Source: Escherichia coli (GTDB lineage Bacteria; Pseudomonadota; Gammaproteobacteria; Enterobacterales; Enterobacteriaceae). Taken from it: a DNA stretch of 64,000 bases. Of the stretch, positions 3,805-43,079 are shown piece by piece (the first letter of the stretch is position 1; each line of letters opens with the position of its first letter). The stretch is taken from NCBI RefSeq assembly GCF_024502345.1, contig NZ_JALDNN010000001.1, one strand, 5' to 3'. A program made the position numbers and the translations under genes. The notes beneath the pieces are model-generated. The model saw only the letters and a list, made by a program, of their open reading frames with translations, was not told the origin of the DNA and did no database searches.

Positions 3805-3894
3805 GATGCCACCTTTAGAGGAAGGCTATTTTTGTTATTGAGGATGTAGGGTAAGAGAGTGGCTAACATCCTTATAGCCACTCTGTAGTATTAA

Positions 3895-5310
3895 TTAAAC
3901 TTCTTTCAGTTTTGCGGTGAAGTGACGCAATACTTTTGGTTCGTAGGTAAAGGTTAATCCTTTAATATTCGCCGCGTTCTCTTTCACATGTTTAAAGGCT
4001 TCAATAATGAAGTCCATATGTGTTTGAGTATATGTTGCGCGCGGAATGGTTAAACGCAGCAGTTCAGCCGGGCATGGCAGTTGTTTACCGGTTTTCGGAT
4101 CGCGGCCTAACAGGAAAGAGCCAATTTCTACCGCACGGATACCGGCGACTTTATACAGCTCGCACGCCAGCGCCTGTGCCGGGAACTGGTCTGCCGGGAT
4201 ATGCGGCAGCAGTTTACCGGCATCAACGAATGCCGCGTGACCGCCCGCCTGCTGGCAGACAACGCCAATCTCTTCCAGACCATCGACCAGATACTGTACC
4301 TGCGCGATACGATAAGCCAGCCAGTCGAGATTCATGCCGTCATACAGACCTACCGCCAGACGCTCCATCGCGCCGCCTTCCAGGCCGCCATATGTCGGGA
4401 AGCCTTCCTGCACCACGCAAAGGGTTCTGCACTCGGTGTACACATCAAAGAAGCTGTCGTCTTTCATGCACAGCAAGCCGCCCATCGGCACCATCGCATC
4501 TTTCTTGGCGGACATCGCCAGCATATCGGCATATTTGTAGGTTTCGCGGGTGATCTGCTCGATGGTCCAGTCTTTGTATTCTGCTTCACGCTGCTTGATG
4601 AAATAGGCGTTTTCAGCAAAGCGTGCGGAGTCCATTACCACCGGAATATCGTATTTCTTCGCGATGCTGTACATAGCTTTTAAGTTTGCCAGTGAAACCG
4701 GCTGACCACCTGCAGAGTTACTGGTGATGGTTGCAACGATATACGGCACGTTATTCGGGCCAACTTCTTCAATACCGCGTTCTAATCCTTCGAGGTCAAA
4801 GTTGCCTTTAAAGTCGTAACGCACGCCCGTATCGAAGGCTTCTTTGATATAGACGTTACGCACGGTACAGCCGTTAATCTGGCTATGGCCCTGCGTGGTA
4901 TCAAAGAAATAGTTAGAGAATGCCACCATTTTGCTGCGATCCAGGCCTTTTTCCTGCTCGCGTTTTTTAATCAGTACCGGAATATAGATTTGCTCTGCGC
5001 CACGGCCCTGGTGAGTCGGAATAGTATATTGATAACCAAAGATATTTTTCACTGACTCGGCTAACGCATAGTAGCTGCGGCTGCCGCTGTAGGCTTCGTC
5101 GCCGCGCATCATCGCTGCCTGCATACTTTGGGTTACCGCCCCGGTGCCGCTGTCGGTCAGTAAATCGATAAACACATCTTCGCTATCCAGCAGGAACGGG
5201 TTCATACCGGATTTAATAATTGCTTCTTCACGATAAGCGCGAGTAGTACGTTTTACTGGCTCAATAACACGAATGCGGAACGGTTCAGGGAGATGTTTAA
5301 AGTTTTCCAT
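3895..5310 (-). CDS. tnaA: tryptophanase
   Basis: ORF translation matches tryptophanase; start set at [14 protein letters not shown] (ATG at 5308-5310 on minus strand) rather than the upstream track start. Confidence 0.9.
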
Positions 5311-10306: not shown

Positions 10307-11710
10307 GTGTCACTTTCGCTTTGGCAGCAGTGTCTTGCCCGATTGCAGGATGAGTTACCAGCCACAGAATTCAGTATGTGGATACGCCCATTGCAGGCGG
10401 AACTGAGCGATAACACGCTGGCCCTGTACGCGCCAAACCGTTTTGTCCTCGATTGGGTACGGGACAAGTACCTTAATAATATCAATGGACTGCTAACCAG
10501 TTTCTGCGGAGCGGATGCCCCACAGCTGCGTTTTGAAGTCGGCACCAAACCGGTGACGCAAACGCCACAAGCGGCAGTGACGAGCAACGTCGCGGCCCCT
10601 GCACAGGTGGCGCAAACGCAGCCGCAACGTGCTGCGCCTTCTACGCGCTCAGGTTGGGATAACGTCCCGGCCCCGGCAGAACCGACCTATCGTTCTAACG
10701 TAAACGTCAAACACACGTTTGATAACTTCGTTGAAGGTAAATCTAACCAACTGGCGCGCGCGGCGGCTCGCCAGGTGGCGGATAACCCTGGCGGTGCCTA
10801 TAACCCGTTGTTCCTTTATGGCGGCACGGGTCTGGGTAAAACTCACCTGCTGCATGCGGTGGGTAACGGCATTATGGCGCGCAAGCCGAATGCCAAAGTG
10901 GTTTATATGCACTCCGAGCGCTTTGTTCAGGACATGGTTAAAGCCCTGCAAAACAACGCGATCGAAGAGTTTAAACGCTACTACCGTTCCGTAGATGCAC
11001 TGCTGATCGACGATATTCAGTTTTTTGCTAATAAAGAACGATCTCAGGAAGAGTTTTTCCATACCTTCAACGCCCTGCTGGAAGGTAATCAACAGATCAT
11101 TCTCACCTCGGATCGCTATCCGAAAGAGATCAACGGCGTTGAGGATCGTTTGAAATCCCGCTTCGGTTGGGGACTGACTGTGGCGATCGAACCGCCAGAG
11201 CTGGAAACCCGTGTGGCGATCCTGATGAAAAAGGCCGACGAAAACGACATTCGTTTGCCGGGCGAAGTGGCGTTCTTTATCGCCAAGCGTCTACGATCTA
11301 ACGTACGTGAGCTGGAAGGGGCGCTGAACCGCGTCATTGCCAATGCCAACTTTACCGGACGGGCGATCACCATCGACTTCGTGCGTGAGGCGCTGCGCGA
11401 CTTGCTGGCATTGCAGGAAAAACTGGTCACCATCGACAATATTCAGAAGACGGTGGCGGAGTACTACAAGATCAAAGTCGCGGATCTCCTTTCCAAGCGT
11501 CGATCCCGCTCGGTGGCGCGTCCGCGCCAGATGGCGATGGCGCTGGCGAAAGAGCTGACTAACCACAGTCTGCCGGAGATTGGCGATGCGTTTGGTGGTC
11601 GTGACCACACGACGGTGCTTCATGCCTGCCGTAAGATCGAGCAGTTGCGTGAAGAGAGCCACGATATCAAAGAAGATTTTTCAAATTTAATCAGAACATT
11701 GTCATCGTAA
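10307..11710 (+). CDS. dnaA: chromosomal replication initiator DnaA
   Basis: Translation matches DnaA (AAA+ Walker [11 protein letters not shown]); start set at the GTG giving MSLSLWQQ (467 aa), 12 nt inside the track start. Confidence 0.9.
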
Positions 11711-12815: not shown

Positions 12816-16331
<3,516 letters not shown>

Positions 16332-16352: not shown

Positions 16353-16450
16353 GCCTGATGCGCTACGCTTATCAGGCCTACGAAAATCTTGCAATGTATT
16401 GAATTTTCATGATTTTGTAGGCCGGATAAGGCGTTCACGCCGCATCCGGC
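16353..16450. repeat. REP/BIME element pair downstream of gyrB
   Basis: Two inverted REP-like units (gcctgatgcgctacgcttatcaggcctac and tgtaggccggataaggcgttcacgccgcatccggca). Confidence 0.6.
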
Positions 16451-26510: not shown

Positions 26511-26612
26511 TACATCGTAGCCGATGAGGACGCGCCTGATGGGTGTTCTGGCTACCTGACCTGTCCATTGTGGAAGGTCTTACATTCTCGCTGATTTCAG
26601 GAGCTATTGATT

Positions 26613-27026
26613 ATGCGTAACTTTGATTTATCCCCGCTTTACCGTTCTGCTATTGGATTTGACCGTTTGTTTAACCACTTAGAAAACAACCAGAGCCAGA
26701 GTAATGGCGGCTACCCTCCGTATAACGTTGAACTGGTAGACGAAAACCATTACCGCATTGCTATCGCTGTGGCTGGTTTTGCTGAGAGCGAACTGGAAAT
26801 TACCGCCCAGGATAATCTGCTGGTGGTGAAAGGTGCTCACGCCGACGAACAAAAAGAGCGCACCTATCTGTACCAGGGCATCGCTGAACGCAACTTTGAA
26901 CGCAAATTCCAGTTAGCTGAGAACATTCATGTTCGTGGCGCTAACCTGGTAAATGGTTTGCTGTATATCGATCTCGAACGCGTGATTCCGGAAGCGAAAA
27001 AACCGCGCCGTATCGAAATCAACTAA
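26613..27026 (+). CDS. ibpA: small heat-shock protein IbpA
   Basis: ATG at 26613 ([16 protein letters not shown]...), alpha-crystallin domain. Confidence 0.9.
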
Positions 27027-40114: not shown

Positions 40115-40274
40115 TATCACGGATGCTTTTATAAAAATAATTAGAATAAGTCACTACGCATTCCCATAAATGCGGGAGAGGAATCTATCACATTGATGAA
40201 TGCTAGCCAGATATGTGCCGGGAATGGCGAAAAGCAAAACGGCAGAATATGTAAACAAAAGCGGCAATAAATGT

Positions 40275-40420
40275 TGCCGGAAGGGATTACGTGCGAACTG
40301 TAACCCTCTCCCTGAAAGGGCGAGGGGGAAACCACCGTTCCCTTTCAGAAAATGAGCTAAACATTGCACGGGACGGTCCCCTCGCCCCTTTGGGGAGAGG
40401 GCTAGGGTGAGGGGCACAGG
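40275..40420. repeat. GC-rich inverted-repeat intergenic element (family unassigned)
   Basis: ccctctccctgaaagggcgaggggg (about 40305-40329) and its near reverse complement cccctcgcccctttggggagaggg (about 40377-40400) flank a roughly 50-bp spacer. Confidence 0.4.
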
Positions 40421-40477
40421 CAGCGCAGGTGCAAACATTCTGCTGGTAGAAGAAGCCCCCAACTCCAACCCGCACGC

Positions 40478-40510
40478 TAAATATAAAAGGGGAGCGGTTA
40501 CCCGCTCCCC
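40478..40510 (-). terminator. intrinsic terminator of tisAB transcript
   Basis: Hairpin ggggagcggttacccgctcccc with an adjacent T-rich run on the minus strand, just downstream of tisB stop. Confidence 0.55.
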
Positions 40511-40532
40511 TTTGGTGCGACTTGAATCTGAA

Positions 40533-40622
40533 TTACTTCAGGTATTTCAGAACAGCATCAAGCAGTTGCAGTGCTGCAACAATGAGTTTGAGGATAAGAA
40601 TGGCGATATCCACCAGGCTCAT
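40533..40622 (-). CDS. tisB: type I toxin TisB (29 aa, SOS-induced membrane peptide)
   Basis: Minus-strand translation MSLVDIAILILKLIVAALQLLDAVLKYLK then stop; below ORF track cut-off. Confidence 0.85.
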   Translation of the reverse strand: MSLVDIAILILKLIVAALQLLDAVLKYLK

Positions 40623-40724
40623 ACGCGTCTCCTGTGGTTCAGGAGCACTGCCAGCTGACGTACCTTTCCGCTGCCTGTTGCCAGCTGTTGTGCACGCGGT
40701 ATCTCAAGGAGAAACGTTGTGCTT

Positions 40725-40745
40725 GTTGACATAACACAGTGTGCT
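40725..40745 (-). promoter_or_regulatory. predicted IstR-1 pairing site in tisAB mRNA leader
   Basis: 21-nt stretch gttgacataacacagtgtgct is identical at 20 of 21 positions to the 5' end of istR-1 (40983-41003), so the minus-strand transcript is complementary to IstR-1; about 100 nt upstream of tisB start. Confidence 0.5.
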
Positions 40746-40856
40746 CACGCGGGGTTAAGGCGCTGACGGCACCACCCGTTTCAGCCAGGACTTAGTGCGC
40801 CGGGTAACGATGCGGCCCCCGCATAACACATTGCGTACAGTGATATTATAGAAGTT

Positions 40857-40876
40857 TGCTGTATAAATAAACAGTA
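40857..40876. promoter_or_regulatory. LexA box (SOS operator)
   Basis: tgctgtataaataaacagta matches the CTGT-N8-ACAG consensus; located between divergent tisAB and istR. Confidence 0.7.
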
Positions 40877-40982
40877 ATTTTTGGACAAAACGCAAACTGT
40901 GATCGATACTCAACTATGTACTAAATACGTCAAAATTCGTGCCGAAATTGCGCGTTCTGCGCGGAACAGGTATACTTTCAGT

Positions 40983-41057
40983 GTTGACATAATACAGTGT
41001 GCTTTGCGGTTACCAGCCGCAGGCGGCTGACGAAACCTCGCTCCGGCGGGGTTTTTT
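40983..41057 (+). ncRNA. istR: antitoxin sRNA IstR-1
   Basis: 75-nt unit ending in a T-run terminator (41052-41057), preceded by a tatact -10 at 40971-40976; divergent from tisB. Confidence 0.65.
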
Positions 41058-41186
41058 GTTACCTGCAATTCAGTGCAAAACGTGATCAACCCCTCAATTT
41101 TCCCTTGCTGAAAAATTTTCCATTGTCTCCCCTGTAAAGCTGTGCTTGTATAAATATTGTTAAACACAAAACCAACAAGGTCCCCA

Positions 41187-41285
41187 ATGACTACTTCCAT
41201 GTTCAACGCAAAACTACTACCAACTGCGCCATCCGCCGCAGTGGTCGTCGTGCGTGTGGTGGTGGTCGTCGGCAATGCGCCGTAG
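41187..41285 (+). CDS. ivbL: ilvB operon leader peptide (32 aa)
   Basis: Translation MTTSMFNAKLLPTAPSAAVVVVRVVVVVGNAP then stop; Val/Leu-rich regulatory run; below ORF track cut-off. Confidence 0.85.
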   Translation: MTTSMFNAKLLPTAPSAAVVVVRVVVVVGNAP

Positions 41286-41312
41286 GGACTGGAACAACAC
41301 ACGATTCCAAAA

Positions 41313-41342
41313 CCCCGCCGGCGCAAACCGGGCGGGGTTTTT
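41313..41342 (+). terminator. ilvBN attenuator terminator
   Basis: Hairpin ccccgccggcgcaaaccgggcgggg followed by T5, between ivbL and ilvB. Confidence 0.6.
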
Positions 41343-41390
41343 CGTTTAAGCACCTCCCGGAAAGTCGGCCCAGAAGAAAAGGACTGGAGC

Positions 41391-43079
41391 ATGGCAAGTT
41401 CGGGCACAACATCGACGCGTAAGCGCTTTACCGGCGCAGAATTTATCGTTCATTTCCTGGAACAGCAGGGCATTAAGATTGTGACGGGCATTCCGGGCGG
41501 TTCTATCCTGCCTGTTTACGATGCCTTAAGCCAAAGCACGCAAATCCGCCATATTCTGGCCCGTCATGAACAGGGCGCGGGATTTATCGCTCAGGGGATG
41601 GCGCGCACCGACGGTAAACCGGCGGTCTGTATGGCCTGTAGCGGACCGGGTGCGACTAACCTGGTGACCGCCATTGCCGATGCGCGGCTGGACTCCATCC
41701 CGCTGATTTGCATCACCGGTCAGGTTCCCGCCTCGATGATCGGCACCGACGCCTTCCAGGAAGTGGACACCTACGGCATCTCTATCCCCATCACCAAACA
41801 CAACTATCTGGTCAGACATATCGAAGAACTCCCGCAGGTCATGAGCGATGCCTTCCGCATTGCGCAATCAGGCCGCCCAGGCCCGGTGTGGATAGACATT
41901 CCTAAGGATGTGCAAACGGCAGTTTTTGAGATTGAAACACAGCCCGCTATGGCAGAAAAAGCCGCCGCCCCCGCCTTTAGCGAAGAAAGCATTCGTGACG
42001 CAGCGGCGATGATTAACGCTGCCAAACGCCCGGTGCTTTATCTGGGCGGCGGTGTGATCAATGCGCCCGCACGGGTGCGTGAACTGGCGGAGAAAGCGCA
42101 ACTGCCTACCACCATGACTTTAATGGCGCTGGGCATGTTGCCAAAAGCGCATCCGTTGTCGCTGGGTATGCTGGGGATGCACGGCGTGCGCAGCACCAAC
42201 TATATTTTGCAGGAGGCGGATTTGTTGATAGTGCTCGGTGCGCGTTTTGATGACCGGGCGATTGGCAAAACCGAGCAGTTCTGTCCGAATGCCAAAATTA
42301 TTCATGTCGATATCGATCGCGCAGAGCTGGGTAAAATCAAGCAGCCGCATGTGGCGATTCAGGCTGATGTTGATGACGTGCTGGCGCAATTGATCCCGCA
42401 GGTGGAAGCGCAACCGCGTGCAGAGTGGCACCAGTTGGTAGCGGATTTGCAGCGCGAATTCCCGTGTCCAATCCCGAAAGCGTGCGATCCATTAAGCCAT
42501 TACGGCCTGATCAACGCCGTTGCCGCCTGTGTCGATGACAATGCGATTATCACCACCGATGTGGGTCAGCATCAGATGTGGACCGCGCAAGCTTATCCGC
42601 TCAATCGCCCACGCCAGTGGCTGACCTCCGGTGGGCTGGGCACGATGGGTTTTGGCCTGCCTGCGGCGATTGGCGCGGCGCTGGCGAACCCGGATCGCAA
42701 AGTGTTGTGTTTCTCCGGCGACGGCAGCCTGATGATGAATATTCAGGAGATGGCGACCGCCAGTGAAAATCAGCTGGATGTCAAAATCATTCTGATGAAC
42801 AACGAAGCGCTGGGGCTGGTGCATCAGCAACAGAGTCTGTTCTACGAGCAAGGCGTTTTTGCCGCCACCTATCCGGGCAAAATCAACTTTATGCAGATTG
42901 CCGCCGGATTCGGCCTCGAAACCTGTGATTTGAATAACGAAGCCGATCCGCAGGCTGCATTGCAGGAAATCATCAATCGCCCTGGCCCGGCGCTGATCCA
43001 TGTGCGCATTGATGCCGAAGAAAAAGTTTACCCGATGGTGCCGCCAGGTGCGGCGAATACTGAAATGGTGGGGGAATAA
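41391..43079 (+). CDS. ilvB: acetolactate synthase I large subunit
   Basis: 562-aa thiamine-diphosphate enzyme ORF downstream of ivbL. Confidence 0.95.
   Translation: MASSGTTSTRKRFTGAEFIVHFLEQQGIKIVTGIPGGSILPVYDALSQSTQIRHILARHEQGAGFIAQGMARTDGKPAVCMACSGPGATNLVTAIADARLDSIPLICITGQVPASMIGTDAFQEVDTYGISIPITKHNYLVRHIEELPQVMSDAFRIAQSGRPGPVWIDIPKDVQTAVFEIETQPAMAEKAAAPAFSEESIRDAAAMINAAKRPVLYLGGGVINAPARVRELAEKAQLPTTMTLMALGMLPKAHPLSLGMLGMHGVRSTNYILQEADLLIVLGARFDDRAIGKTEQFCPNAKIIHVDIDRAELGKIKQPHVAIQADVDDVLAQLIPQVEAQPRAEWHQLVADLQREFPCPIPKACDPLSHYGLINAVAACVDDNAIITTDVGQHQMWTAQAYPLNRPRQWLTSGGLGTMGFGLPAAIGAALANPDRKVLCFSGDGSLMMNIQEMATASENQLDVKIILMNNEALGLVHQQQSLFYEQGVFAATYPGKINFMQIAAGFGLETCDLNNEADPQAALQEIINRPGPALIHVRIDAEEKVYPMVPPGAANTEMVGE

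Follow-up and report, generated by a model that had tools for sequence, protein, structure and literature searches.

A chromosomal tisAB/istR type I toxin–antitoxin locus of Escherichia coli, very probably intact and organised as in K-12

Whether a short interval of an Escherichia coli chromosome carries a complete toxin–antitoxin system is a question that gene lists built on a length threshold are poorly placed to answer. It was raised here by positions 40478–41057 of a 64,000-nt stretch of E. coli DNA (referred to throughout as the window), in which an earlier reading of the letters, the original prediction, had picked out by hand the SOS-inducible tisB/istR-1 pair. In K-12, tisB is induced by the SOS response, the sRNA IstR-1 is made constitutively, the duplex of the two RNAs is cut by RNase III, and the TisB peptide depolarises the membrane (PMC2826370, PMC4147584, PMC5668327). 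Sequence comparison indicates that the interval is almost certainly the chromosomal type I toxin–antitoxin locus tisAB/istR of Escherichia coli in intact form, since all of the tisAB and istR parts were found, in the K-12 arrangement and at the K-12 genomic position. The locus is an ordinary allele of an already known, textbook system, and the four elements named in the original prediction (peptide, LexA box, sRNA and repeat) all lie where it had placed them.

The toxin gene is on the minus strand and istR is on the plus strand, so that the two are divergent and do not overlap, with 295 nt between the tisB ATG (40622) and the start of IstR-2 (40918) and with an operator for which LexA binding is predicted at the toxin promoter. 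The gene order yidF-emrD-tisB-istR-ivbL-ilvB matches that of K-12, and the chromosomal context of emrD on one side and ivbL-ilvBN on the other is conserved; the K-12 MG1655 annotation lists ilvB, ivbL, istR (IstR-1, IstR-2), tisB, ysdE and emrD in the order seen in the window. The MG1655 locus (b4618 for tisB, b4616 for istR-1/istR-2) has the same position, divergent layout and lengths, and its inferred 5′ UTR, tisA, antisense target, promoter hexamers and Shine-Dalgarno sequence are identical to those of the window. Pairwise alignment of the interval with MG1655 gave seven substitutions and no insertions or deletions over 580 nt. This was the comparison by which divergence or deletion of the peptide or sRNA region was to be detected, and neither was found. 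The features and the seven differences are compiled in Table 1.

Table 1. Features of the tisAB/istR locus and its differences from K-12 MG1655, in window coordinates
Feature	Position	Strand	Basis or remark
tisAB primary transcript	40478..40838	-	5′ end inferred from the -10 hexamer; 3′ end after the terminator
tisAB intrinsic terminator	40486..40513	-	Perfect 12-bp hairpin, 4-nt loop, then U-rich tail; hairpin and repeat search
tisB CDS (N2S allele), a hydrophobic membrane toxin of 29 aa	40533..40622	-	ORF, family models, K-12 alignment
tisA, 37-codon upstream ORF	40619..40732	-	Stop overlaps tisB start (ATGA); DNA identical to K-12
tisB Shine-Dalgarno AGGAGA	40628..40633	-	5 nt before AUG; hexamer search
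Segment of the tisAB 5′ UTR for IstR-1 pairing and ribosome standby	40724..40745	-	Direct repeat of the IstR-1 5′ end
tisAB promoter -10 hexamer TATAAT	40845..40850	-	Same as PMC11264685 Table 1
LexA operator TGCTGTATAAATAAACAGTA	40857..40876		Over the tisAB -35 region, just upstream of the istR-2 -35
istR-2 promoter TGGACA, 17-nt spacer, GATACT	40882..40910	+	Hexamers as PMC11264685 Table 1
IstR-2, 140 nt, LexA-controlled, contains IstR-1	40918..41057	+	Mapped from K-12 RefSeq ncRNA annotation
istR-1 constitutive promoter TTGCGC, 17-nt spacer, TATACT	40948..40976	+	Hexamers as PMC11264685 Table 1
IstR-1 antitoxin sRNA	40983..41057	+	Rfam match, fold, K-12 annotation
Difference from K-12	40500		tisAB terminator loop
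Difference from K-12	40618		TisB N2S
Difference from K-12	40858		LexA operator (20 nt), A>G at its position 2
Difference from K-12	40879		Between operator and istR-2 -35
Difference from K-12	40919		IstR-2 +2
Difference from K-12	40969		IstR-2-only stem, also istR-1 promoter spacer
Difference from K-12	41026		IstR-1 stem 1, U-A to U·G

When the listing of open reading frames is taken down to 20 aa, tisB appears as 29 codons with the translation MSLVDIAILILKLIVAALQLLDAVLKYLK, and this is the hydrophobic peptide that had been found by hand. It passes the cut-offs of Pfam PF13939 (TisB_toxin; 37.6 bits, cut-off 25) and of two curated NCBIfam equivalog models, NF011340 (69.9 bits, cut-off 53) and TIGR04459 (61.5 bits, cut-off 38), both over residues 1–29. 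Together with the score of the sRNA against its Rfam family, given below, and the K-12 position, these matches bear out the assignment of the pair as tisB/istR-1. The peptide is identical to K-12 TisB at 28 of 29 residues, the sole change being N2S, which is the majority natural allele, carried by 85% of the E. coli loci; overproduced TisB with N2S is toxic, and its toxicity is no lower than that of the K-12 peptide (PMC11264685).

The 5′ end of the tisAB transcript was placed 7 nt downstream of the -10 hexamer, with an accuracy of a few nucleotides, which gives an inferred 5′ UTR of about 215 nt. The segment 40623–40857, covering this 5′ UTR and the -10 hexamer, is 100% identical to K-12. The promoter hexamers of tisAB, istR-2 and istR-1 have been tabulated for a set of over 2,000 E. 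coli genomes, and the Shine-Dalgarno sequence AGGAGA is listed there as 100% conserved (PMC11264685 Table 1); the tisAB -10, the -35 and -10 of both istR promoters and the Shine-Dalgarno sequence of the window all equal the published hexamers. At the other end of the transcript, the loop of the terminator hairpin reads GUAA here and GAAA in K-12. The upstream ORF tisA includes part of the IstR-1 target, and it has been described as untranslated (PMC2826370, PMC11264685); the lack of any family match for it in Pfam or NCBIfam is consistent with that status.

The Rfam family istR (RF01400) was matched at 40928–41057 on the plus strand in a scan of the whole window, with 144.8 bits (gathering score 45) and E = 7e-30, and the match is complete, spanning model positions 1–130 of 130. 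Mapping of the K-12 RefSeq annotation places IstR-1 at 40985–41057 (73 nt), so that the terminator-ended 75-nt sRNA unit originally described differs from it by at most 2 nt and is indeed IstR-1; the Rfam model and the K-12 annotation also cover the longer IstR-2, which the original prediction had not named. IstR-1 is constitutive, and IstR-2 is controlled by LexA and neither represses tisB nor is needed for its repression (PMC2826370, PMC11264685). A 75-nt RNA starting at 40983 is predicted to fold at -32.0 kcal/mol (z = -3.0) into an unpaired 5′ tail of 12 nt, one stem-loop (40995–41029) and a terminator hairpin (41032–41055) followed by a U-run; the tail forms the first part of the antisense segment at 40983–41003. 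A search for hairpins with T-runs reported a terminator-like hairpin at 41040–41052 with the T-run after it; both transcription units, tisAB and istR, close with terminator-like hairpins. The single substitution within IstR-1, A>G at 41026, turns a U-A pair of stem 1 into U·G, leaves the minimum free energy structure the same (-32.0 versus -32.5 kcal/mol in K-12) and introduces the base of the Rfam consensus.

The 5′ end of IstR-1 recurs in the tisAB leader as a direct repeat of 22 nt, 40724–40745 against 40982–41003, with 21 of the 22 positions identical; because the two units are divergent and the repeat is direct in the DNA, the IstR-1 5′ end is complementary to the leader. The one T/C difference in the repeat becomes a G·U pair within a contiguous RNA duplex, as it does in K-12. 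Shuffles of the window yielded no match to the 22-nt repeat even when three mismatches were allowed, and the complementarity is far beyond chance. Complementarity extending past these 22 nt, as might be left by an old duplication, was considered and dropped as not significant, the DNA similarity there being weak, with 53 of 1,000 shuffles scoring as well. RNAduplex returned a long duplex of -78 kcal/mol between IstR-1 and the leader in a calculation that ignores intramolecular structure.

In the inferred transcript the target covers roughly +94 to +115; it lies 101 nt from the tisB ATG and 90 nt from the Shine-Dalgarno sequence, in keeping with the near-identical 21-nt copy about 100 nt upstream of tisB that the original prediction had reported. 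At a distance of 90 nt, IstR-1 cannot mask the ribosome-binding site directly. The separation from the AUG and the untouched Shine-Dalgarno sequence fit blocking of ribosome standby better than direct occlusion of the ribosome-binding site, and a standby role has been assigned to the target segment in K-12 (PMC6690012, PMC4147584). The proposed fit to the standby-site antisense mechanism thus stands, with a pairing segment that is clear of the Shine-Dalgarno sequence in a leader that is the K-12 leader from 40623 to 40857.

A different account of the silencing would have IstR-1 act mainly through RNase III cleavage and mRNA decay, or through direct masking of the ribosome-binding site, and not by competition with 30S standby. 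RNase III is known to act on the duplex, tisB mRNA is raised in rnc and istR-1 mutants (PMC4147584), and the predicted folds show no clear switch in accessibility between the +1 and +42 mRNAs. Masking is ruled out by the geometry just described. Standby competition has been demonstrated in vitro with an mRNA whose 5′ UTR is identical to that of the window: IstR-1 displaces 30S and S1 from the +42 mRNA when RNase III is absent (PMC6690012), and inhibition by IstR-1 under this condition has already been seen for the identical K-12 leader. Cleavage and standby blocking are compatible, and the accepted model has both. We regard this account as hardly credible and retain standby competition.

The +1, +42 and +106 mRNA species were defined on the K-12 leader (PMC6690012). 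Since the 5′ UTR of the window is that of K-12, the K-12 results on these mRNAs, on S1-dependent standby and on RNase III cleavage carry over, and an inert +1, an active, standby-competent +42 and an inert +106 mRNA would be expected here from the identity of the leader. In the predicted folds of the +1, +42 and +106 mRNAs the Shine-Dalgarno sequence is mostly paired (probability of being unpaired, 0.16–0.20), and in the +1 fold the mRNA 5′ end is predicted to pair with the upstream half of the IstR-1 target; both features appear to agree qualitatively with the published model. Thermodynamic folding reproduced the change in accessibility from +1 to +42 only modestly, the target being unpaired with a probability of 0.38 versus 0.48. 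For this reason the structural switch is taken from the literature, and the folds were not used as independent evidence for it.

The leader, the target and the antisense segment of the sRNA are all identical to K-12, which makes the published K-12 mechanism transferable, and the steps set out here are those of the K-12 literature (PMC6690012, PMC4147584, PMC5668327, PMC2826370), which we infer to apply in this strain. LexA at 40857–40876 would keep the tisAB promoter repressed until it is itself cleaved in response to DNA damage. The tisAB mRNA in its primary (+1) form would be translationally inert, and removal of its first 41 nt would give the +42 mRNA. Here a 5′ hairpin and a single-stranded stretch, the latter some 100 nt upstream of the structured ribosome-binding site of tisB, would jointly act as an S1-dependent 30S standby site. 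The constitutive 75-nt IstR-1 would pair through its 5′ 21 nt with the standby stretch, blocking standby binding and displacing 30S and S1, and RNase III, directed to the duplex, would cut the message to give the inert +106 mRNA. With the transcript start inferred at about 40838, the +42 end would be near 40797 and +106 near 40733, the latter within the IstR-1 duplex, so that the inferred start is consistent with the published RNase III cut. Under strong SOS induction tisAB transcription would exceed IstR-1, and the 29-aa TisB would enter the inner membrane, collapse the proton motive force and ATP and bring about a dormant, antibiotic-tolerant state; TisB is known to depolarise the inner membrane and to promote ciprofloxacin-tolerant persisters (PMC2826370).

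The LexA operator is the only feature of the locus that is not the common allele. Its CTGT-N8-ACAG motif, CTGTATAAATAAACAG at 40859–40874, is the only one in the 64-kb window and has the minus-strand tisAB -10 hexamer as its neighbour. As a bare motif it is within chance (0.42 expected per 64 kb, and at least one in 36 of 100 shuffles), and it was therefore rejected as significant on its own; the box carries weight because it occupies the orthologous position of the K-12 operator, between the tisAB and istR-2 promoters, where a LexA box in the divergent promoter region had been claimed. The operator matches the K-12 operator TACTGTATAAATAAACAGTA, for which a heterology index of 1.81 has been given (PMC5668327), at 19 of 20 positions. 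The exception is position 2, G here and A in K-12, so that the operator begins TGCTGT in place of TACTGT. An exact 36-nt query able to seed on the G allele only matched 128 of the 5,426 complete E. coli genomes. The first operator of the K-12 lexA gene, an established LexA operator, reads TGCTGTATATACTCACAGCA and also starts with TGCTGT. Destruction of the LexA box by the A>G change was considered and is unlikely: the palindromic CTGT-N8-ACAG core is intact and the lexA operator has the same beginning, which makes a loss of LexA control improbable. It is conceivable that the TGCTGT allele weakens LexA repression and that, in combination with the more toxic N2S TisB, it lowers the DNA-damage threshold for TisB-dependent dormancy, so that persisters would form more readily than in K-12, but we consider this quite unlikely.

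Across the species the locus shows a presence/absence polymorphism, as previously reported for tis/istR (PMC11264685). Of the 5,426 complete E. coli genomes, 4,358 carry the 580-nt locus, 4,150 of these with it in one piece, and the remaining 1,068 have no tisB/istR match. In the locus region the window is 99.9% identical to E. coli FDAARGOS_943, and its identity to essentially all E. coli that have the locus is 95% or higher. The tisB/istR locus is interrupted in about 208 genomes. In E. coli 32-4 (positions 3894–5300 of the extracted locus L004), the promoter region is interrupted: a transposase gene of the ISL3-like ISKox3 is situated between tisB and ivbL, and similarity to the window stops at about 40870, inside the LexA box. 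In E. coli E10 (L003, 2840–3035), about 190 nt of unrelated DNA replaces window positions 40282–41122 between ysdE and the ivbL promoter.

Given this variation, the locus might be present in the window yet functionally decayed, a remnant heading for the loss that about one in five E. coli genomes shows. That tisB/istR is dispensable in nature, as the absent and interrupted copies attest, speaks for such decay, as does the minority operator allele. Against it, the tisB ORF is full length and encodes the dominant N2S allele, toxic by experiment (PMC11264685), the promoter hexamers, Shine-Dalgarno sequence, both terminators and antisense pairing are all intact, and not one insertion or deletion separates the locus from K-12. 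We therefore hold decay to be very improbable and keep the reading of an intact locus, which no feature of the sequence contradicts.

Several other toxin and sRNA families of E. coli share this design. The dinQ/agrB, zorO/orzO and shoB/ohsC systems, which are type I systems of the SOS or standby kind, likewise pair a small hydrophobic toxin with a divergent sRNA, have a long, structured 5′ UTR that requires 5′ processing, and have a segment of about 20 nt complementary to the sRNA at a large distance upstream from the ribosome-binding site (PMC5668327, PMC4147584). They are nevertheless distinct families, whereas the locus described here matches the TisB and istR models specifically.

The surroundings of the locus contain further small features. 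Between ysdE/emrD and the tisB terminator lies a GC-rich element of 185 nt (40288–40472) with imperfect inverted arms of 27 nt at 40301–40327 and 40378–40404; K-12 has a short REP-like stretch at this site and no 185-nt GC-rich element. The element is a dispersed, unannotated repeat that occurs in 3,993 of the 5,426 E. coli genomes, at 13,150 places in all and at a median of three per genome, and it is presumably similar to enterobacterial intergenic repeats of the 'Box C' class. The ysdE ortholog (24 aa, 40196–40270, plus strand) encodes MNASQICAGNGEKQNGRICKQKRQ in the window and MNVSQIYARNGELFSGRICKQKRQ in K-12, a difference at 7 of 24 residues that stems from substitutions clustered at 40203–40245 in otherwise near-identical DNA. 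On the other side, positions 41188–41345 of the plus strand, upstream of ilvB (41391–43079), contain the ivbL leader peptide MTTSMFNAKLLPTAPSAAVVVVRVVVVVGNAP, in which residue 6 is changed from K-12 (L6F), along with its attenuator terminator. Elsewhere in the window, three more Rfam families scored above their gathering scores: AsdA, the antisense RNA of dnaA mRNA (10817–10897, minus strand, 101.9 bits), the ROSE_2 RNA thermometer (26547–26619, plus strand, 100.4 bits) and the ES036/CssrF sRNA (16374–16416, minus strand, 44.8 bits).

The statement that automated ORF calling misses all of the locus holds for the length-thresholded list, since tisB is absent from the default list of ORFs of at least 60 aa, whose three entries over this interval, of 83, 70 and 165 aa, are spurious. 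It does not hold for NCBI PGAP, which calls tisB in the 99.9%-identical strain FDAARGOS_943, although no istR feature is annotated there. The value of the locus lies in annotation. It is a good positive control for the way in which small toxin genes and sRNAs escape an ORF track with a length threshold; in this case family HMMs and covariance models recover both genes immediately.
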